DNA of 64,000 nucleotides, taken from NCBI GenBank assembly GCA_044229975.1, contig JBGARZ010000002.1, forward strand, positions 288,001 through 352,000, read 5' to 3'. Position numbers and translations under genes: made by a program. Below are positions 3,370 to 59,053 of the stretch, in pieces; positions within the stretch are counted from its first letter, which is position 1; every line of letters begins with the position of its first letter. Under the pieces are notes generated by a model, which was not told where the DNA came from, did no database searches, and saw only the letters and a list, made by a program, of their open reading frames with translations. This stretch comes from Polyangiales bacterium. GTDB taxonomy: Bacteria > Myxococcota_A > Polyangia > Polyangiales > Ga0077539.

Positions 3370-5253
3370 ATGCGTCGCCCGTCGCCTGCCGCTCTCGCCG
3401 TGATCGTCGCCGCGTTCACCCCCGCCGCGCTCGCTCAAACCGCCTCGCAGACCCCCGCCCCCACCGCCACGCCGTCGGTCGACTCCGCGGGCATCAACAT
3501 GGCCGCCGCCACGGCGGAGGAGCGCACCGCCACGACCGGCGATCGCCCCACGCCGACGCCACCGCCGAGCAACCTGCTCGACCGCATCGGCAGCATGTTC
3601 GAGATCCACGGTTACCTCCGCGTGCGCCCCGAGTGGATGCACCAGTTCGACCTCGGGTGGGATGACATTGCGCTGCGCGATGTGCGGCGCGACATCTACG
3701 CGCAGTCGCAGCTCCCGTGGACCCGCAACCCAGACAACGGCGTCAGCCTCTGCCCCGGCAGCGGCCTCGGCCCGATGGGTGATCGCTGCACGGGCCGCAC
3801 GCAGACGATGGCCAACATGCGCTTCCGGATCAACCCGGAGATCCATGTCACGGACAACATCGCGATCTACTCGCAGATCGACATCTTCGAAAACCTCATC
3901 CTCGGCTCGACCCCGCAGGGCTTCTACACCCGCGGCCAGGCGTCGCCCTGGGCGCCCGTCGGCGCCTTCACGCAGACGCAGGTCGCGCCCACCGAGCAGA
4001 ACAGCCTCACGCCGTCCATCCTCGTGAGCCGCGCCTGGGCCGAGGTCACCAACCAGAACCTCGGACAGATTCGCTTCGGCCGCATGCCCGGCCAGTGGGG
4101 CCTCGGCATCCTCGCCAACGCCGGCAACGGCATCGACAGCGACTACCAGACCCACACCGACCGCATCATGTACGCGGCGCGCATCCGCCCGCTGCACCTC
4201 TTCCTCGCGGCCTTCTATGACTTCGCCTCGACGGGCCTGACGTCGCAGACCTTCCTGCGCGAGCCCGGCCAGGGCCAGCCCATCGACGTGTCGCAGCTCG
4301 ACGACGTGAACCAGTTCGGCCTCGCGCTCGGGCGCCGCGTCGATCCCGCCGAGGCGCGTCAGCGGCTCAACCGCGGACAGCTCGTCATCAACGGCGGTCT
4401 CTACGGCCTCTACCGCAACCAGCAGCTCTCCTCCGAGCTCGCGGGCGTCGGCGGCACCGGCAACGTCGACCAGCGCACCGTCGGCACCACCGATGCTGCG
4501 TCCGCCGGCCTCATCAACCGCAACGCCTGGGCCGTCATCAGCGACCTGTGGTTCCAGGTGTTGCACCGCAATTTCCGCTTCGAGATGGAGGCCGCGCTCA
4601 TCTACGGCGAGACCACCATCAACCGCACCGCCGCGCCCAACCAGCAGCGCTACGAGCTCGCGCAGTTCGGCGGAGCGATGGAGTTCGAATACCGCCTGCT
4701 CAACAACCGCCTCACCATCGACTTCCGCACCGGCTACGCCAGCGGCGACAGCGACGTCGAGGGGCTCAACTTCCAGAACAGCTTTACGCCCCCCATCCGC
4801 GGCACCACGAAGGCGTTCACGACCTTCCGCTTCCACCCCGACTACCGCGTCGACCTGATTCTCTGGCGGCAGATCATGCGGCAGATCTCGGGCGCCTACT
4901 ACTTCCGCCCGGCGGTGAGCTACGCCTTCGTCAACTCGCCCGGCGGCGATCGCCTCTTCGCCCGCGTCGCCGGCATCTGGTCGCGCGCCAGCGATCCCGT
5001 CCAGACCCGCGGCAACGCCGCCGACCTCGGCATCGAGCTCAACGCCGAGGTCACGTACCAGTCCAACTTCCGCGACACCACCCTCGGCGATCGCCCTGGC
5101 GCGGGCTTCTTCGCGTCGCTCCAGTACGGCGTGCTCTTCCCCATGGCGGGCCTCGGTCCGCGCGACGACGAGCGCAGCAGCTCGTCCTCCTACTCGGGCT
5201 TCAGCTTCAGCACCGCGCAGACACTCCGCGGTGTCGTCGGTGTGATGTACTGA
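3370..5253 (+). CDS. Myxobacterial outer-membrane beta-barrel protein (TIGR04551-like)
   Basis: GGAGG RBS, signal peptide (PAALAQ), FEIHGYLR, ANMRFRINP, RAWAEV, GRMPGQWGLG, FRFHPDY, and a terminal aromatic residue (GVMY). Confidence 0.8.
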   Translation: MRRPSPAALAVIVAAFTPAALAQTASQTPAPTATPSVDSAGINMAAATAEERTATTGDRPTPTPPPSNLLDRIGSMFEIHGYLRVRPEWMHQFDLGWDDIALRDVRRDIYAQSQLPWTRNPDNGVSLCPGSGLGPMGDRCTGRTQTMANMRFRINPEIHVTDNIAIYSQIDIFENLILGSTPQGFYTRGQASPWAPVGAFTQTQVAPTEQNSLTPSILVSRAWAEVTNQNLGQIRFGRMPGQWGLGILANAGNGIDSDYQTHTDRIMYAARIRPLHLFLAAFYDFASTGLTSQTFLREPGQGQPIDVSQLDDVNQFGLALGRRVDPAEARQRLNRGQLVINGGLYGLYRNQQLSSELAGVGGTGNVDQRTVGTTDAASAGLINRNAWAVISDLWFQVLHRNFRFEMEAALIYGETTINRTAAPNQQRYELAQFGGAMEFEYRLLNNRLTIDFRTGYASGDSDVEGLNFQNSFTPPIRGTTKAFTTFRFHPDYRVDLILWRQIMRQISGAYYFRPAVSYAFVNSPGGDRLFARVAGIWSRASDPVQTRGNAADLGIELNAEVTYQSNFRDTTLGDRPGAGFFASLQYGVLFPMAGLGPRDDERSSSSSYSGFSFSTAQTLRGVVGVMY

Positions 5254-5257
5254 GAGA

Positions 5258-5277
5258 CATTCCCTGTCACGGGAATG
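5258..5277 (+). terminator. Hairpin right after the porin stop codon
   Basis: CATTCCC-tgtcac-GGGAATG inverted repeat 4 nt after the TGA. Confidence 0.4.
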
Positions 5278-5314
5278 ATTGCGCCGTGACGTCGCGGCGC
5301 GCTACGACCCGCCC

Positions 5315-6721
5315 GTGAAGGACACCGCCGTCTTCGTCTGTCAGTCCTGCGGCGCGTCGCAGCCCAAGTGGTCCGGTCGCTGCCCCGCCTGCGGCGTCTG
5401 GAACAACATGGTCGAAGAGCGCGCCCCCCGCGGCCGCGCAGCCCGCGCGCGCAACGCCATCGCGGTGTCGGCGGGGGGCGGCGCGGTCTCCCTCGACGAG
5501 GCGATGGACGCCGAGTGCCCCCGGGTCGAGACGGGCCTCCCGGAGTTTGACCGCGTCCTCGGCGGCGGTCTCGTGCATGGCTCGGTGGTGCTGCTCGGCG
5601 GCGAGCCCGGCGTGGGCAAGAGCACCCTGCTCCTCCAGGTGGTGGCCGCGCTCGTGGCGCGTACCCGCGGGGAGGACGTTCGCGGCGGCGTGCTGTACGT
5701 GAGCGGCGAGGAGTCGGCCTCGCAGGTGGCCTCGCGCGCACGGCGCCTCGGGGTGGCGGGTGACGCGGCGCTGAAGCTCCTGGCGACGGGCGAGCTCGAC
5801 GCCCTGGAGGCCGCGGTGGCGAAGATCGACCCGTCGGTCATCGCCGTCGACTCGGTGCAGACGATGCGCGCGACCGACCTGGAGAGCGCGGCGGGCAGCG
5901 TCTCGCAGCTCCGCGAGGTGACGGCGCGGCTGGTGACCATGGCCAAGCAGCAGGGCCGCACGGTGCTGCTCGTGGGGCACGTCACCAAGGACGGATCGCT
6001 CGCCGGCCCGAAGCTGCTGGAGCACCTCGTCGACGTGGTGCTCGCCTTCGAGGGACAGCGCTCGGGCGGGCCGCGCATTCTGCGAGGCATCAAGAACCGC
6101 TTCGGCGCGTCGGGCGAGCTGTGCGTGATGGAGATGACCCGCGACGGCCTGCGCGAGGTGGCCGACCCCTCGGCGCTGTTTCTGGCCGAGCGCCCGAAGG
6201 ACGTCCCAGGCTCCGTGGTGGTGTCGTCGGCCGACGGCGCGCGCCCGCTGCTGCTGGAGGTGCAGGCCCTGGTGACTCCGTCGGCGGCGCCCAACCCGCG
6301 GCGCATCGCGACGGGCGTGGATGGCACGCGGCTGTCGATCCTCGCGGCGGTGCTGGCCCAACGCGCGGGGCTGCCGCTGCGCGACCGGGACGTGTTCGTA
6401 TCGGTGGCGGGCGGCGCGTCCATCGAGGAGCCCTCGGTCGACCTCGCGGTGACCTGCGCCGTCGCGTCGAGCGTCGTGGAGATGGCGATGCCGTCTGACC
6501 TTGTTGTGTTTGGCGAGGTCGGCCTCGCGGGAGAGGTGCGGGCCGTCCCGCGGTGCACGCCGCGGTTGGAGGAGGCGCTCAAGCTCGGCTTCAAGCGGGC
6601 GCTCATCCCGAAGGCCAATCTCGATCGGGGGGAGGTTCCGCCCGGCATCACGGCGCACGGCGTCGCGCACGCCCGGGAGGTTGCCGCGTGGATCGAGCGC
6701 CGGGCCCGGTCGCGCGACTGA
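5315..6721 (+). CDS. radA: DNA repair protein RadA/Sms
   Basis: CxxC-CxxC zinc ribbon, Walker A GEPGVGKST, KNRFG motif, Lon-like C-terminal domain (GEVGLAGEVR). GTG start is inferred. Confidence 0.96.
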   Translation: MKDTAVFVCQSCGASQPKWSGRCPACGVWNNMVEERAPRGRAARARNAIAVSAGGGAVSLDEAMDAECPRVETGLPEFDRVLGGGLVHGSVVLLGGEPGVGKSTLLLQVVAALVARTRGEDVRGGVLYVSGEESASQVASRARRLGVAGDAALKLLATGELDALEAAVAKIDPSVIAVDSVQTMRATDLESAAGSVSQLREVTARLVTMAKQQGRTVLLVGHVTKDGSLAGPKLLEHLVDVVLAFEGQRSGGPRILRGIKNRFGASGELCVMEMTRDGLREVADPSALFLAERPKDVPGSVVVSSADGARPLLLEVQALVTPSAAPNPRRIATGVDGTRLSILAAVLAQRAGLPLRDRDVFVSVAGGASIEEPSVDLAVTCAVASSVVEMAMPSDLVVFGEVGLAGEVRAVPRCTPRLEEALKLGFKRALIPKANLDRGEVPPGITAHGVAHAREVAAWIERRARSRD

Positions 6722-17366: not shown

Positions 17367-19271
17367 TCAGGCGGGCGCTGCGGCGCGAAGCATCGTGAGC
17401 AGCGCCTGGCCGTAGGCCTCGACGCGGGCGGGCCCGAGGCCGTGCACCTGCGCGAGCGCCGCGAGGTCGTTGGGGCGTCGGGCGGCGACCTCCTGGAGCG
17501 TTCGGTCGAAGGCGACGACGTAGGCCGGGAGCCCACGGCGCTTCGCCTCTTCGGCGCGCCACGCACGCAGTCGGTCGTAGAGGGCGTGGTCGTAGTGGCC
17601 CACCGTCGCCTCCGGGGCGGCGGGGCGTCGGGCGGTCGCAGTGCGCGGGCGCTCGCGGTCGGGGGGCAGGCGAAAGCGCACGGCGTCGTTGGCTCGCATC
17701 ACCGCGGCACCCGCTGCCGTGACGAAGGGAACCGGGTGCTCGGTCGGCGTCAGGTCGATCCATCCGGCGGCGAGGAGGCCACGGAGCAGGGAGAGCACCC
17801 ACGGCTGCGAGCGGTCGCGCAGAAGGCCGAAGGTGGAGAGCTGGTCGAAGCCGAATCGCATCGTGCGCTGGGAGTGGGCGCCGCGGAGCATCTCCGCGAT
17901 GGCCTGGAGACCGCCGCGCTGTCGGGCGCGCGCGACCCCCGAGAGTGCCATGCGAACGGCGGTGTCGACCTGCGACTGGGGGACATCGTCGGTGGGCTGG
18001 TCGAGGCTCGCGCAGATGTCGCAGTGACCGCAGCCACCGAGGATCTCCCGCTCGTCGCCGAAGTACCGGAGCATGAAGTCGTGTCGGCAGGTGCCGGCGT
18101 CGAGGTAGCGCAGGAGATCGCAGAAGAGGTGCCACGCGCGGGCCGACTGCGCGGGGTCGGGGGCCTGCCCGTCGGAGCCCATCTGGGTGAGCCGTCGGCG
18201 TAGCGCGATGTCGACGCCCGAGCAGAGGAGCAGGCCGTGGGCTTCGGCGCCGTCGCGGCCGGCGCGCCCGACCTCCTGATAGTAGGACTCGATGCTCGAC
18301 GGGGGTTGGAGATGGAGCACCGTGCGGATGTCGGGCCGGTCGATGCCCATGCCAAAGGCGTTGGTCGCGACGACGACGTCGAGGGTGCGCGCGCTGAAGC
18401 GCTCCGAGAGGCTCGACCGCTCGTCCGGTGCGAGGCCGGCGTGGTAGGGCGCGGCGTTCCACCCGGCGCGGCGCAGCTCGTCGGCGACCTGCTCGGTGGC
18501 CTTGCGCGTGGCGGCGTACACGATGGCTCCGCCCGCGGGACGCGTCGGCTCGCCGAGCACGCGCTTCAGCTCGCGTCGCACCGTCTCCTTGGACTCGGTG
18601 GGCCCGTCGACGGTGCGCGCCGAGAGGTGGAGGTTGGGCCGCGCGAAGCCTCGGAGGACGACCCTCACCTTCTCGCGATCGAAGCGCAGTCGTTCGAGGA
18701 TCTCGTTGCGGACGTCGGGCGTCGCGGTGGCGGTGCAGGCGAGCAGGCGCGGCGGGCGGAGGCGCTCGATGAGGTCGCCGATGCGAAGGTAGTCGGGCCG
18801 GAAGTCGTGGCCCCACATGGAGATGCAGTGGGCTTCGTCCACGGCGAGCAGCGAGATCTTCGCGCGGGCGCACGCGTCGACGAAGCCGTCGAACTGGAGG
18901 CGCTCGGGCGCGAGGTACACCAGCTTGTAGCGGCCCGCGATCATCCCCGAGATGCGCGCCCGACGGACGTCGGGGGTGAGCGTCGAGGCGAGGAAGGTGG
19001 CCGAGACGCCGCGCTGATCGAGCGCCCGCACCTGGTCTTCCATGAGCGCGACGAGCGGCGAGATGACCAGCGTGACGCCGGGGAGGCAGGTCGCGGTGAA
19101 CTGATAGGTGAGGCTCTTGCCGCCTCCGGTCGGGGCGACCACCAGTGTCTGCCCACCGTCGAGGAGGGCCTCGATGGACTCCCGCTGCCACGGGCGGAAA
19201 TCATCGAGCCCAAAACGATCGAGGAGTGCTTCGCGGAGGGGGTCGCGAGCGACGGGTGGGTCAGCGTCCAT
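17367..19271 (-). CDS. recQ: ATP-dependent DNA helicase RecQ
   Basis: PTGGGKS, DEAHC.S.WGHDFRP, TATAT, ATNAFGMGID, YYQEVGRAGRDG, zinc-binding Cys cluster, RQC and HRDC domains. Confidence 0.95.
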   Translation of the reverse strand: MDADPPVARDPLREALLDRFGLDDFRPWQRESIEALLDGGQTLVVAPTGGGKSLTYQFTATCLPGVTLVISPLVALMEDQVRALDQRGVSATFLASTLTPDVRRARISGMIAGRYKLVYLAPERLQFDGFVDACARAKISLLAVDEAHCISMWGHDFRPDYLRIGDLIERLRPPRLLACTATATPDVRNEILERLRFDREKVRVVLRGFARPNLHLSARTVDGPTESKETVRRELKRVLGEPTRPAGGAIVYAATRKATEQVADELRRAGWNAAPYHAGLAPDERSSLSERFSARTLDVVVATNAFGMGIDRPDIRTVLHLQPPSSIESYYQEVGRAGRDGAEAHGLLLCSGVDIALRRRLTQMGSDGQAPDPAQSARAWHLFCDLLRYLDAGTCRHDFMLRYFGDEREILGGCGHCDICASLDQPTDDVPQSQVDTAVRMALSGVARARQRGGLQAIAEMLRGAHSQRTMRFGFDQLSTFGLLRDRSQPWVLSLLRGLLAAGWIDLTPTEHPVPFVTAAGAAVMRANDAVRFRLPPDRERPRTATARRPAAPEATVGHYDHALYDRLRAWRAEEAKRRGLPAYVVAFDRTLQEVAARRPNDLAALAQVHGLGPARVEAYGQALLTMLRAAAPA

Positions 19272-19365
19272 GGGGCGGTGGCGGACCATAGCATCACGCC
19301 GCGAGCGCCCGCCGCTGAGCATCGGCGAGGGCGGGGACATAGCCTGTCCGAGTTGTTCGGAGGGG

Positions 19366-19713
19366 CTACGCCGCCCTGGCGTGGGCGTCGATGGCGGTGA
19401 CGTCGTTGGCGAAGGGCGCCGTCACGTCGATGCGAGAGAGGCGGCGCGCGGTGATGGCCAGCGAGAGGGTGACGGCCTGCGCCTCGACGCTGCGACCGGC
19501 TGCCATCGGAATCGAGCGGGCGAGCGCGAGGAGGGCGAGCGCGCGCCCGCGGATCGCGTCGCGGGTGTCGTCGGCGATGGCACACGTGACCCAGTGCCGA
19601 CGGCCGGTGCTGGGGTCGACGCGCCACAGGCTGACGCGCGCCTGGCCTTGGGCTATACGACGCCAGGTAAAGCAGAAGCCGGCGGCGCGGAGGATGGGGG
19701 CGGGGTTGATCAT
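19366..19713 (-). CDS. Small hypothetical protein, paralogue of 58364..58723
   Basis: GGAG RBS. Colinear similarity to the 58364..58723 product (RAAG..FTW, WR..WVT, AQAV..LAIT..RL) supports coding status. Confidence 0.75.
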   Translation of the reverse strand: MINPAPILRAAGFCFTWRRIAQGQARVSLWRVDPSTGRRHWVTCAIADDTRDAIRGRALALLALARSIPMAAGRSVEAQAVTLSLAITARRLSRIDVTAPFANDVTAIDAHARAA

Positions 19714-19896
19714 CGGGGGACTCCGTGTGGGTGGTGGGTTGTTGCTCGGCCGGGCGGTCTGCCCTTCGGCTGAACGGATGTACCCTGGCTTCCGTCGGGT
19801 TTCATAAATTGTGGCAACGGATGTTCAGCTACTGCGATCGTGCAGGTGGCCGATAAGAAGATTGGAGACAGCGACGATGGTGACGGGGGCGGAGCG

Positions 19897-20880
19897 ATGG
19901 GCGATCTGAACGGGATGTCGACGGAAGACCGGGTGGCGGTCGACCGCATCTTCGAGCGCCTGTCGGGGCGGACGCACTACGAGGTGCTGCAGATCGCCCC
20001 GGACTCGTCGTGGGAGGTCATCGACCAGGCGCTGCGCGACCTTCGGCGTCGGTGCGATCCGGCGCGATTTGTGGGCATCCCGAGTGACGAATATCGGTAC
20101 CGCATCGACGCCATCGTCCGCGCCTTCGACGAGGCGACGCAGGTGCTCGGCGACCCCGTGCGGCGCTTCCTCTACGACCAGCAGACCCTCCGCGGCGAAG
20201 GGCGGCGAGGCGTCACGCCCCCTCCCCCGCAGTCAGCCGTTACGCCCATTCCTCCGCGCCCCATCGCGTCGGGTCGGATGCCCGAACGCGACACCCCGTC
20301 CATCCGACCTCCTGCGATGGACTCGCCGCTCGTGGTGCCCGCGCCGCTGAAGCGCGACGGCGGCGGCGTCACGGAGACGCGAGGCAGCTACCGCCCATCG
20401 GGCAACCGCCCGTCGGTGGCGCCGGGGCGCCCGGAGGTGAAGGTCCCTGTCGACCAGGGAGCGCCGCGCGTGGCGCCGGGTGACGACGCCCATCACCGCG
20501 ACCTCACGGCGTTGATGGTGGAGGTCGAGCGCATCGCGGTGGCGGTGCAGTTCTGCATCGCGCAGTCGATCGATCCGCAGGCCGAGCGGGTTCCGGCGCT
20601 GCAGACTGCGGGGCAGGCCCTTGCAGACACCCGGTCGGCGCTGGCGTCCATCCAGGCACGTCGTGAGGAGGAGGTCGGGCGCTGGGCGGAGGCTGCCATC
20701 CATTGGCAGCGTGCGTCGCGCGCGAGACCGATGGACGCGACGATTCTCGCGCGGCTCGCCGAGGCGCTGAGTCGTTCGGGCGACCCGCGCGCCGCGGACG
20801 ACGCCGCTAGACGCGCGCTGACCATCGACCCGGCGTGCGAGGCGGCGCGCACCACGCTCTCCGCGATCGGTCGCCGCTAG
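19897..20880 (+). CDS. J-domain-like plus TPR protein
   Basis: THYEVLQI..A..VLGDP.RR..YD J-domain pattern, Pro-rich linker, C-terminal TPR helices (ARRALTIDP). Confidence 0.75.
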   Translation: MGDLNGMSTEDRVAVDRIFERLSGRTHYEVLQIAPDSSWEVIDQALRDLRRRCDPARFVGIPSDEYRYRIDAIVRAFDEATQVLGDPVRRFLYDQQTLRGEGRRGVTPPPPQSAVTPIPPRPIASGRMPERDTPSIRPPAMDSPLVVPAPLKRDGGGVTETRGSYRPSGNRPSVAPGRPEVKVPVDQGAPRVAPGDDAHHRDLTALMVEVERIAVAVQFCIAQSIDPQAERVPALQTAGQALADTRSALASIQARREEEVGRWAEAAIHWQRASRARPMDATILARLAEALSRSGDPRAADDAARRALTIDPACEAARTTLSAIGRR

Positions 20881-55380: not shown

Positions 55381-56766
55381 ATGACCGGTCGCTGCACGAT
55401 CGTCCTGGCCGCGGGCCAGGGCACCCGCATGAAGAGCTCGTTGCCCAAGGTGCTGCACCCGGTGGCAGGCGTGGCGATGGTTCACTGGTCGGTCGAGGCT
55501 GCGCTCGCCGCGGGCTCGGACACCGTCGTCCTCGTGGTGGGCCACGGGCGCGAGGCCGTCACCGCCGCCGTCACCGCGCGCTTCGGCGACCGCGTGCGCT
55601 TCGCCGTGCAGACCGAGCAGCGCGGCACCGCCGACGCCGTGCGCGCGGGCATGACCGAGGTCCCCGCCGACGCGACCGAGGTGCTCATCACGTACGGGGA
55701 CGTTCCGTGTGTCCCGGCCGAGGCGCTCAAGAAGCTCATCGAGGCGCGCAGCGGATCGCCCCTCGCGATGATCACCACCGAGGTCGCCGACCCCACCGGC
55801 TACGGTCGCATCCTGCGTGACGCCGCGGGTCGTATCCGCGCCATCCGCGAGCACAAGGACTGCTCCGCCGACGAGCGCGCCGTGCGCTGCGTCAACCCCG
55901 GCCTCTACGTCGCCGACCGCGCCTTCCTGGCGGCCTCGCTCGGTCGCATCGGCTCGACCAACGCGCAGGGCGAGTTCTACCTGACCGACCTCGTGGAGAT
56001 CGCCGCGGGCGAAGGCGGCGTGGGCGAGCTCTCGTGGGAGCCCATCGCGCTCCGCGGCGTCAACGATCGCGCCGAGCTCGCGGCCACCGAGGCGTACCTC
56101 TGGCAGCGCATCGCGGACGGCCATCGCCGCGCCGGGAGCAGCGTGGCGCAGGGCGTGTTCATCGACCGCGACGTGACCATCGAGCCCGGCGCCACCATCG
56201 GTCCGTGCGTCGTCATGCGCGGCAAGACCACCGTCGGGTCGGGCACCACCGTCGACGTCGGCTGCGTGCTCGACGACGCGAGCATCGGCCGCGACGTGCT
56301 GCTCAAGCCGTACACGCTGGTCACGCGCTGCGAGGTGCACGAGGGCGCGCAGCTCGGGCCGTTTGCGCACCTCCGACCCGACAGCGTGGTGGAGGCCGGC
56401 GCGCACGTCGGCAACTTCGTCGAGCTGAAGAAGACCCGCCTGGGCAAGGGCGCCAAGGCCAACCACCTCGCGTACCTCGGTGATGGCGTCGTGGGCCCGA
56501 AGGCCAACATCGGCGCGGGCACCATCTTCTGCAACTACGACGGCTTCCGGAAGCACACGACGACCATCGAGGAGGGGGCCTTCGTCGGCTCCAACAGCTC
56601 CATCGTCGCGCCGGTCACCATCGGCAAGAACGCCTACGTAGGCTCCGGGTCGGTGGTGACGAGGGACGTCCCCGAAGACGCGCTCGCCGTCGGGCGCGCC
56701 AAGCAGGAGAACAAGGACGGCTACGGCAAGCGGCTGCGCGAGCGCTTCGGCGCCGCCAAGCGCTGA
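55381..56766 (+). CDS. glmU: Bifunctional GlmU
   Basis: LAAGQGTRMKS..KVLH, YGRI, EFYLTD, GVND, GNFVELK, and CNYDG. Confidence 0.97.
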   Translation: MTGRCTIVLAAGQGTRMKSSLPKVLHPVAGVAMVHWSVEAALAAGSDTVVLVVGHGREAVTAAVTARFGDRVRFAVQTEQRGTADAVRAGMTEVPADATEVLITYGDVPCVPAEALKKLIEARSGSPLAMITTEVADPTGYGRILRDAAGRIRAIREHKDCSADERAVRCVNPGLYVADRAFLAASLGRIGSTNAQGEFYLTDLVEIAAGEGGVGELSWEPIALRGVNDRAELAATEAYLWQRIADGHRRAGSSVAQGVFIDRDVTIEPGATIGPCVVMRGKTTVGSGTTVDVGCVLDDASIGRDVLLKPYTLVTRCEVHEGAQLGPFAHLRPDSVVEAGAHVGNFVELKKTRLGKGAKANHLAYLGDGVVGPKANIGAGTIFCNYDGFRKHTTTIEEGAFVGSNSSIVAPVTIGKNAYVGSGSVVTRDVPEDALAVGRAKQENKDGYGKRLRERFGAAKR

Positions 56767-58313
56767 CGTCGCGCCACCAACGCCAGCAACACGCCCGCGA
56801 GCAACACGCCGCGAGCGTCTCCCGACCGCGCTCCACCCACCCGACATCCGCAGCCCTCCGTCGTTCGCCCGAAGGTGCGCGTCCCCGCGTCCGTCCCGGC
56901 GTCGATCCCCTCGCCCGCGTCGGGCGGATCGACCCCCACGTCCCTGGCAAACGATCCGACGTCACCGAGCGCTGGCGCATCGCGCGCGACGCCCCCGTCG
57001 GGCACCGGGATCACCACGCAACGACCGCTCTCGCAGCGCTCGCCGCCGGGACACCGCGCGCCCTCGCACGCGTCGACGCAGCGGCCGTCCACGCAGCTCG
57101 TCCCGCTCGCGCAGGTGACCGTCGCGCACGCCATCGCGCGGCAGCGACCATCGGTCCCGCACGCCTGCCCCGCGCCGCACCGTCGGCACTCGCAGCGCGG
57201 AACGCACAGCCCCTCGACGCACACCTGATCGCTGTCGCAGGTCACGCCCTCGCACGCATCGACGCACCGGCCCGCGCGGCACGCGAGGCCCGCCGGGCAC
57301 ACGATGCCGTCGCACGCCCCGACGCAGCGCCCGTCTTCGCAGCGCTCTCCCACGTCGCAGCTCGTGGTCTCGCAGGCCGCCTCGACGCAGGTTCCGCGCG
57401 TGGTGCAGCGCAGCCCGGGGAAGCACCCGAGCTCGCTCAGGCAGCGGTCGACGCAGCGCCCGCGGTCGCACACCTGCATCGTTCCGCAGAGCCCGTCGCC
57501 GTCGTCGACCTCGCCGTCGCAGTCGTTGTCGACGCCGTCGCAGCGCTCGGCCGACGCCGTCACCGCAGGAACACATACGAGTGAGCCCGCGCGGCACTGC
57601 AACGTCCCCGCGCCGCACGCGCCGTTCATGGACGTGTCGCAGCTCCCGCCGCTGCCGGTGCAGACGATCTCGTCGACGAGCGCGATGAAGTCCGTGAAGT
57701 TGTTGTCGCCGCCCGAGAAGAGGTCCTCCCAGGTGAAGTAGAAGGCGCGCGCGGTGACCCGGGAGTCGTAGGTCAGCAGGTGGATGTACGAGTCGGCCCC
57801 GACGTTGTCCTCGTTGTACGCGCGCTCCGAAAAGAACGAGTGCCCGCCCCGCGACAGCGACGCGCAGCAGTCGCCCGAACAGGTTCCCGACGAGCCGTCT
57901 TCGGGGGTTCGGAGGAAGAAGCCGATCTCGCCGCCGAGGTACGCGGGGTTGGTGCGGAGGTTGAGCGTGAAGCGCTCGTTGGCCATCGCCCCGCACGGGA
58001 TGAGCACCTGAAGATCGCGCGGCGGGTTGTCGCGCGAGGGCGTGACGCCGGGCCGGACGTTGTACCAGCCGAAGACATTGCGAAAGGCCGCGCTGCCCCG
58101 AGTGATGAGCGTGAACGTGAGGTTGCAGCCGGGCACGAAGCGCTCGGGGACGATGGCCGCGTCCTCGCGCACGCGGATGGCCTCACCGCGGGCGGTGAAG
58201 AGGTCTTGGAGCTGGTTGCCGACCGGGATCTGCGGGCCGCCGCGGGGCTGGTTGATGGCGTGGGCCGACGAGGCGAGGAGCAGGGACGCGAGGAAGAAGA
58301 GCGCGGCGCGCAT
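56721..58313 (-). CDS. Surface protein: DUF4114-like domain, Cys-rich repeats and MYXO-CTERM-like anchor
   Basis: GGAGG RBS and signal peptide. NVFGWYN..WEDL..DNNFTD, ERCDGVDNDCDG, CxGVxC repeats, then GCGC + TM + RR. Confidence 0.85.
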   Translation of the reverse strand: MRAALFFLASLLLASSAHAINQPRGGPQIPVGNQLQDLFTARGEAIRVREDAAIVPERFVPGCNLTFTLITRGSAAFRNVFGWYNVRPGVTPSRDNPPRDLQVLIPCGAMANERFTLNLRTNPAYLGGEIGFFLRTPEDGSSGTCSGDCCASLSRGGHSFFSERAYNEDNVGADSYIHLLTYDSRVTARAFYFTWEDLFSGGDNNFTDFIALVDEIVCTGSGGSCDTSMNGACGAGTLQCRAGSLVCVPAVTASAERCDGVDNDCDGEVDDGDGLCGTMQVCDRGRCVDRCLSELGCFPGLRCTTRGTCVEAACETTSCDVGERCEDGRCVGACDGIVCPAGLACRAGRCVDACEGVTCDSDQVCVEGLCVPRCECRRCGAGQACGTDGRCRAMACATVTCASGTSCVDGRCVDACEGARCPGGERCESGRCVVIPVPDGGVARDAPALGDVGSFARDVGVDPPDAGEGIDAGTDAGTRTFGRTTEGCGCRVGGARSGDARGVLLAGVLLALVARRQRLAAPKRSRSRLP

Positions 58314-58363
58314 GAGGGCCTCCCGGATGACTGACCGTGGGAGGTTGTACCGCGGAAGGGGAA

Positions 58364-58723
58364 TCAGGCGGCGGCAGCGCGCCCGCCGACGAGGCGCTTG
58401 AGCGCGACGACCATGGCCGGGTCGCGGCGCTCGGGCATGCGGGTGAGGCGGTCGTGCGTGATGGCGAGCTGCTCCATGACGGCCTGCGCCTTCGGGTCGC
58501 GGCGCGCTGGCACATCCAGCGACACGACCCACGCCACCAGTGCCATGGCACCGGCGTAGGCACCGTCACGGTCGGGGCGGCAGCTCGCGCGCGTGACCCA
58601 GTAGCGCTCGTCACCGCTGGCAGACTCGCGCCACATCTCCAGCGAGGCGCGGCCCCCGCTGTCCGACGGCGCCCACGTGAACAGGTACCCGGCGGCGCGG
58701 AAGGAGCGTTCGGTCTGATTCAT
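58364..58723 (-). CDS. Small hypothetical protein, paralogue of 19366..19713
   Basis: GAGG RBS and colinear similarity to the 19366..19713 product. Confidence 0.75.
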   Translation of the reverse strand: MNQTERSFRAAGYLFTWAPSDSGGRASLEMWRESASGDERYWVTRASCRPDRDGAYAGAMALVAWVVSLDVPARRDPKAQAVMEQLAITHDRLTRMPERRDPAMVVALKRLVGGRAAAA

Positions 58724-58783
58724 CGGCTGACCTCGCGTGGTGGAAGATGGTCTGGAACGTTTGGAGCTCTGGGCGAACACCAC

Positions 58784-58799
58784 AGCAAGGCGCAGGCCA
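58784..58799 (-). promoter_or_regulatory. Candidate sigma54 (-24/-12) promoter
   Basis: Minus strand TGGCCTGCGCCTTGCT fits TGGC-N7-TTGC(T) (GG-N10-GC), 60 nt upstream of the ATG at 58723. Confidence 0.5.
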
Positions 58800-59053
58800 C
58801 GAGCGGCAGCGAGGCAAGCGACCGTAAGCACTTATGAAAGTGACGATGGGAGTCGTCGAGAATTGCCGCGTGGGCCGCTTGTCGTCGCAGGCGCCATGGG
58901 GTGAGGCGATCGGTCACGCGTGCGGCACACGTGAACATCACTGCCCACATGCAGCGTTTGCAAGACGAGACGTTCAAGGTTGCAACCGTTGCGGGGCGAC
59001 CGCGTCGGGAGCGTTTGACGGGAGCACCCGGCGCGGTGCAACGCTCGCCCTCG

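Follow-up and report, generated by a model that had tools for sequence, protein, structure and literature searches.

The activity of the SOS division inhibitors SulA and YneA is ended by proteolysis; SulA has a RecA-like fold, and YneA and SidA, a further inhibitor of this kind, have a transmembrane segment. SOS division inhibitors are described as unrelated proteins specific to each lineage (PMC4211646). In Myxococcus xanthus, lexA mutants are reported to filament, and the mechanism of the damage-induced division block is presented as still to be clarified (PMC12288472). LexA-type control combined with ClpXP turnover has been described for RecN, UmuD' and cleaved LexA of E. coli (PMC10165496, PMC6590174), and the same combination is predicted here for one of two small genes located in a 64-kb window (the whole stretch of DNA analysed, 64,000 nucleotides) of an uncultured Polyangiales-type genome. 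Literature searches on RecQ in LexA regulons of the Deltaproteobacteria and on intrinsically unstable SOS or ClpXP proteins returned no match, and an unnamed family is unsearchable by name.

The two genes, hereafter A (19366..19713, 115 aa) and B (58364..58723, 119 aa), lie 39 kb apart on the minus strand. The initial annotation had placed both open reading frames at these coordinates and on this strand, listed their common motifs and C-terminal ends (RAA in A, RAAAA in B) and counted by hand about 37 identities in 87 columns (~42%); all of these observations were reproduced, with BLASTP yielding 37/89 identities (42%), one gap and an E-value of 1e-16. The Smith-Waterman score of 148 exceeds the best of 5000 shuffles, which reached 63; this confirms that the similarity is real and indicates that A and B are paralogues of an undescribed protein family. 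The less GC-rich upstream regions previously remarked upon are likewise present (183 bp at 62% GC before A and 330 bp at 65% GC before B, versus 71% for the window), and GC3 is 0.90 in A, B and recQ alike. Two further claims stand in part. Each gene had been called stand-alone, but a gene on the same strand follows both: a recQ helicase gene (17367..19271, minus strand; DEAD, Helicase_C, RecQ_Zn, RQC and HRDC domains) begins 95 bp beyond A, and 50 bp downstream of B lies a DUF4114 / Cys-rich surface-protein gene (56721..58313, minus strand), each with a conserved promoter-like element of its own. The ribosome-binding contexts, described as similar, have only GGAG / GAGG in common. An unfiltered profile search of the 97,810 ORFs of the host genome detected no third copy, leaving A and B only, and Rfam returned nothing in the 64-kb window.

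Across the genomes of the host's family, all of them MAGs of uncultured Polyangiales-type bacteria, the protein family was found in 30/31, with one copy in 17 genomes, two in 12 and three in one. These amount to 44 copies; in the host genome itself, the profile search for additional copies proposed with the initial annotation found none beyond A and B. The family was absent from all 397 other genomes of a 401-genome sample of the phylum, in which only the four host-family genomes matched. These figures uphold the suggested lineage specificity and contradict the suggested expansion: with one to three copies per genome and a second copy in 13/30 positive genomes, they indicate a near-core, near-universal gene of one uncultured myxobacterial family that is often duplicated, not expanded. 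No distant family was present among the 25 hits of a profile search against 1.84 billion representatives, which were family members or fragments apart from two apparent chimeras and two matches driven by repeats; ESM Atlas yielded no usable hit, which speaks for neither novelty nor absence. Three weak out-of-family matches (E 0.002–0.005) were discarded as partial only, the deeper profile having found none beyond the host family, and viral contigs yielded a single 18-residue match and nothing more. The sole negative genome, G025 (90% complete), also lacks a match to the host recQ, so that an assembly gap is possible. Median pairwise dN/dS values of 0.26 for eight A orthologues and 0.19 for seven B orthologues indicate that the family is under purifying selection; the host-genome A evolves fastest among the A orthologues (dN/dS 0.37–0.60).

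A C-terminal Ala-Ala constitutes the core of the ClpXP/ssrA degron. This dipeptide ends 40/42 distinct genome-derived proteins of the family (110–150 aa among genome copies), against a background of 43/2553 coding-like ORFs (1.7%). One of the two exceptions is truncated by a contig end and the other ends in CACE; the latter (L061:3869-4279, in G010) alone among the complete genome copies lacks a terminal Ala-Ala and, like the representative P0044, which has none either, offers a natural degron control. Among all 51 members, 50 carry the Ala-Ala end, on a tail extending 20–34 aa beyond the last core residue. Identity among 19 A orthologues is 74% in the core, 31% in the tail and 100% in the last two residues. 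This conservation at the end of so variable a tail, together with the excess over background, shows that the free terminal Ala-Ala noted in the initial annotation is under selection. The tail is disordered in the AlphaFold2 model of A and partly helical in that of B. The host genome contains clpX, rpoN and lexA (C28:61231-61923), and its tmRNA tag ends in FAA; the products of its imuA, imuB, dnaE2, bet and lexA genes and of both recA genes all lack an Ala-Ala end. In an E. coli screen, terminal Ala-Ala is described as necessary and not sufficient, with Leu or an aromatic residue favoured upstream and His depleted at position 3 (PMC10862746). Compared with that screen, Ala or Arg at position -4 of the family tails fits, Leu at -3 is absent and His occupies this position in 6/51 members; the tails HARAA, RRHAA and RAAAA do not match the strongest consensus, which is E. 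coli-derived. Judging from these ends, the proteins are likely to be proteolysed via the tail, with ClpXP as the likeliest protease.

Inspection of the promoter region of A identified two LexA-box-like sites on the minus strand. The distal site (19813..19828) has a perfect CTGAAC half-site; the proximal site (19770..19785), 43 bp from it, has a perfect GTTCAG half-site and overlaps the putative -10 of a sigma70-type promoter (19777..19805, minus strand; -35-like element at 19800-19805, 17-bp spacer, -10-like element at 19777-19782), which was delineated from conservation and was not picked up by an E. coli-consensus promoter/terminator scan. Promoters of copies outside the clade containing B (the B clade, see below) have two such boxes, one starting with CTGAAC and one ending with GTTCAG or near it, at a spacing of 42–43 bp (about four helical turns) in 27/30 copies. 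A matrix that separates non-B from B-clade copies at 27/30 versus 0/13 is partly circular. With the published M. xanthus LexA-box consensus (PMC9705874), at least one site with two or fewer mismatches was found upstream of 24/30 non-B-clade copies, 1/13 B-clade copies and 5/500 background regions, and two or more such sites upstream of 16/30, 0/13 and 0/500, respectively, these counts leaving out G007B, the upstream region of which is missing. The two sites of gene A have 2 and 3 mismatches to the M. xanthus box, and LexA is reported not to have bound an M. xanthus recN box with 2 mismatches (PMC9705874).

A matrix derived solely from the promoters of relatives was used to rank 252 sites in the host genome. 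It placed the imuA-imuB site first, the two sites of gene A second and seventh, bet (Bet recombinase) fourth, dnaE2 ninth, top6B 11th, an AlkB-like gene 15th and lexA 52nd, with other high-ranking sites preceding unrelated genes. Gene A is the only gene in the genome with a strong double site at 42–43 bp spacing. No hexamer is commoner upstream of lexA than CTGAAC/GTTCAG, which occurs there in 29/30 genomes. A lexA-only matrix, which represents one orthologous site and is over-fitted, placed 9/30 non-B and 1/13 B-clade copies above the 99th background percentile and scored gene A at 3.5, below the 90th percentile. The two recA genes lack a strong box (scores 8.6 and 8.5), and copies G015 and G021 have degenerate boxes only. 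A box with 2 mismatches persists at all eight SOS-type copies that have no recQ downstream, and at six of these the neighbouring genes are different or uncalled; this retention indicates that the boxes belong to gene A. On this comparative evidence, binding of LexA to the promoter of A is highly probable, and the separate regulation of the two genes put forward in the initial annotation, with LexA-type boxes at A and a sigma54 motif at B, emerges more strongly than could be seen at that stage.

Other loci of the host genome (G000) also came to light. A 172-aa ORF (L076:2691-3206; G000 C38, ~249,190) with no Pfam or NCBIfam match is preceded by the third-best LexA-type box of the genome, which makes it a further candidate SOS gene without characterisation. 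A LexA-type box also precedes a gene for a phage-type Bet/RecT recombinase (L077:2587-3327; G000 C11, ~111,090), the neighbours of which are apparently non-phage. Two identically scoring partial matches to the LexA N-terminus lie in long ORFs, possibly of mobile elements, at G000 C14:132929-133141 and C32:624534-624746.

An SOS-type copy lies directly before recQ in 21/30 cases, elsewhere in 8/30 and at a contig edge in 1/30, and a divergent DnaJ-like/TPR gene (19897..20880, plus strand) is a conserved neighbour of A. The interval between A and recQ contains a conserved palindrome, GACA-N5-TGTC (19335..19349, minus strand), and a conserved extended -10-like element (19285..19293, minus strand), on the basis of which recQ likely has its own promoter. 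An A-recQ operon, the first reading of this arrangement, was downgraded because recQ shows these conserved elements of its own, with read-through possible; A lies in a DNA-damage locus, but co-transcription of recQ with A does not follow from this.

All 18 loci in a set chosen by eye have the palindrome; two recQ-linked loci outside this set (G009b, G018b) lack it. Its top 45 sites in the genome include those before ruvB, recN, top6B, recQ, priA, ssb, gyrA, yoaA, topB, gyrB, radA and an HTH-WYL-WCX regulator gene (L162:509-1513; C38, ~976,000); the radA site lies within the window (5253-5271, before radA at 5279-6718). GACA-N5-TGTC looks like the mark of a second, LexA-independent DNA-damage regulon, for which the WYL protein is a candidate regulator by analogy to DriD. 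The latter is described as binding its own promoter and those of repair genes (PMC9186387); the DriD site given in that source differs in sequence from GACA-N5-TGTC. Both a LexA-type box and the palindrome lie before a bacterial gene for subunit B of DNA topoisomerase VI (L083:763-2877; G000 C38, ~243,900). Of the 71 radical-SAM matches in G000, about 30 form an unusually dense cluster on the 150-kb contig C30.

Upstream of B we identified a sigma54 -24/-12 motif (TGGC-N7-TTGCT; 58784..58799, minus strand) that is conserved in the B clade. Scored as GG-N10-GC with a consensus taken from PMC7910581, 12/13 B-clade copies reach at least 6, as do 2.5% of 600 background regions, and the 30 other copies score 3 or less. 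An AGAGCTCC element with a conserved GAGCTC lies near the predicted start site of B (58763..58770, minus strand); GAGCTC is invariant in 12/12 aligned B-clade upstream regions, located close to the predicted transcript start in some copies and within the sigma54 motif in others. Some 150–190 bp upstream, in the region common to B and a divergent esterase gene (PF00756; 59054..60283, plus strand) that, like the DUF4114 gene, is a conserved neighbour, two GCA-N5-TGC palindromes 31 bp apart (58951..58992) form a candidate enhancer for a sigma54 activator. Tandem palindromes about 30 bp apart occur in 6/7 same-genus B copies and are single or absent elsewhere. Of the 54 strict sigma54-like sites in the host genome, that of B alone has the pair, which could serve the esterase instead of B. 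Sigma54-dependent transcription of B can be predicted with good confidence from these features. The DUF4114 gene may have a promoter of its own, as suggested by a conserved GGTACAAC element (58344-58351) in the interval that separates it from B.

The maximum-likelihood tree of 42 proteins, built from proteins and labelled from promoters, places the copies lacking the LexA-type box pair in one clade, the B clade, with a single change of promoter type, on the branch supported at 99/95; G007B and G013 were left out of the tree, G018b and G019b are unlabelled and the root was not inferred. The positive genomes each contain one non-B copy, no more and no fewer, and a B-clade copy is always an extra, a distribution that suggests that the SOS-type promoter is the older state. 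The third copy of G019 (L043), a B-clade member with a weaker sigma54 motif, lies in a ketosynthase / short-chain dehydrogenase neighbourhood.

The AlphaFold2 models are confident for both proteins and agree with the beta-rich N-terminal half and helical C-terminal half anticipated from the sequence: model A (pLDDT 87.4) comprises a helix, three strands and two helices (core 1-94) with a tail disordered from about residue 95, and model B (pLDDT 87.7) four strands and three helices. The family is thus modelled with confidence as a small alpha/beta fold. Pfam, NCBIfam, PHROGs, PADLOC and PDB sequences gave blank or chance-level matches, in keeping with the initial statement that no known domain could be assigned, and the structural comparison proposed with it produced no match at E 0.001 with Foldseek (PDB and BFVD) and none at Z 8 with VIA-align for either model. 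The best structural row is MmoD (6d7k_H), with Z 7.0, rmsd 3.1 and 65 aligned residues for model B and Z 5.3, rmsd 2.8 and 59 aligned for model A, followed by T7 gp1.2 (7u65_G; Z 5.1, rmsd 3.1, 71 aligned) and PsiB (3nct; Z 4.6, rmsd 3.7, 78 aligned); all rows remain below Z 8, where models that have no genuine match typically score, at 8–14% identity.

Combining these observations, we propose that LexA would repress gene A through two operators, that DNA damage would release LexA and give rise to a pulse of the small basic A protein, and that this protein would transiently inhibit a step of the cell cycle or of DNA handling, with the divisome, the replisome or RecA as conceivable targets, until cleared by ClpXP via its Ala-Ala tail once LexA returns. 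Duplicate B would deliver the same activity under a sigma54 activator. We consider this reading as a whole, a LexA-repressed, protease-cleared SOS inhibitor of SulA-like logic with a sigma54-driven duplicate, to have somewhat less than an even chance of being correct. The regulation and the degron are predicted from strong comparative evidence. The inhibitor function, if the remainder of the reading is granted, would be an evenly balanced call, resting on design logic and precedent: a double operator and a degron together would keep the basal level very low and remove the protein quickly, which is what a product that does harm by persisting would require. The high pI of the proteins fits nucleic-acid binding equally well.

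The same regulation could instead serve a nucleic-acid-binding repair accessory, such as an ssDNA binder or a RecQ or RecA helper, with the degron resetting its level after repair, as for RecN, the level of which is described as set by ClpXP (PMC10165496). The proteins are basic (pI 9.5–12.0) with conserved R9, W31, R32, R40, W42, R52 and R92, the Arg and Trp residues lying on strands, and recQ adjoins 21/30 copies. Many dsRBD rows align with model A (Z 3.7–5.0, many at 4–5), and ssDNA-binding chains of the PC4/PUR/Whirly type, with PUR/PC4 heading the Foldseek list, align with model B at E 0.028 or worse (TM 0.23–0.29; Z 3.1–3.6), but these fold scores are below significance. The eight SOS-type copies and the B clade without recQ downstream, the promoter-like elements of recQ itself and the location of the sigma54 copy beside an esterase and a surface-protein gene, hard to reconcile with a dedicated repair role, all speak against such an accessory, which we regard as unlikely, if the most credible of the alternatives. 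More doubtful still is an unstable second-tier transcription regulator relaying LexA or sigma54 signals through an AP2/Arm-like sheet that reads DNA. Its attractions are a small, basic protein with a three-stranded sheet, a helix and an R-x-W strand, AP2 rows at Z 3.0–3.5 and the described use of C-terminal Ala-Ala degrons on regulators (PMC7142297), but none of the 51 members has a Pfam match to AP2, Arm or HTH domains at E 0.5, and hhalign against a bacterial AP2 alignment, in which only four AP2 repeats were compared, gave a probability of 0.2%.

It is improbable, too, that LexA does not act on A through the upstream boxes, which would instead bind another regulator or serve the divergent DnaJ-like gene, leaving the A protein with no link to DNA damage. 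The weak lexA-only result, the imperfect sites and the absence of a strong site at recA would fit that explanation, but the motif selects imuA-imuB, dnaE2, bet and lexA, agrees with the published M. xanthus box and accompanies the gene to places where its neighbours differ. An SOS-induced, HicA-like RNase toxin of dsRBD fold, neutralised by proteolysis rather than by an antitoxin and inducing dormancy, is very improbable: model A does match the alpha-beta-beta-beta-alpha order of that fold and A does begin with a HicA-like L-x-x-x-G-aromatic turn, but membership in the HicA family (PF07927) fails on the missing G-S-H catalytic motif, nearly invariant in 27 HicA sequences, and on the profile comparison (hhalign probability ~1% over 10–11 columns), model B has a strand where the first helix is expected, and no HicB neighbour was seen at the loci.

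The proposed SOS inhibitor can be taken a step further, to a reading that we consider unlikely in its full form: the protein would serve a single myxobacterial family as its inhibitor at the DNA-damage checkpoint, being soluble, a new variant of fold and kept off by paired LexA operators and by a degron for ClpXP, with a sigma54-captured duplicate pulling the same cell-cycle brake in starvation or development. If true, arrest in the SOS response would thereby be tied to development. In the genomes searched, no member turned up beyond the host family, so the family cannot explain the division block of M. xanthus itself. It does provide a concrete candidate SOS effector, with exact operators and tail, for one Polyangiales-type lineage, as well as a clean, tree-supported case of a duplicate moved from predicted LexA to predicted sigma54 control with its degron kept.

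Compared with known systems, A resembles SulA of E. coli, YneA of B. subtilis and SidA of Caulobacter in being small, lineage-specific and, by prediction, SOS-induced. No sequence or fold link to these inhibitors was found: the models contain no RecA-like fold, unlike SulA, and no transmembrane segment, unlike YneA and SidA. MmoD, T7 gp1.2 and PsiB are small alpha/beta inhibitor proteins, from which A and B differ by an extra helix and the degron tail. With the ClpXP-cleared SOS proteins, A has in common an ssrA-like Ala-Ala end, carried here by an unrelated 115-aa protein, and, set beside SulA, YneA and SidA, only the A/B family includes a paralogue with a predicted sigma54 promoter.
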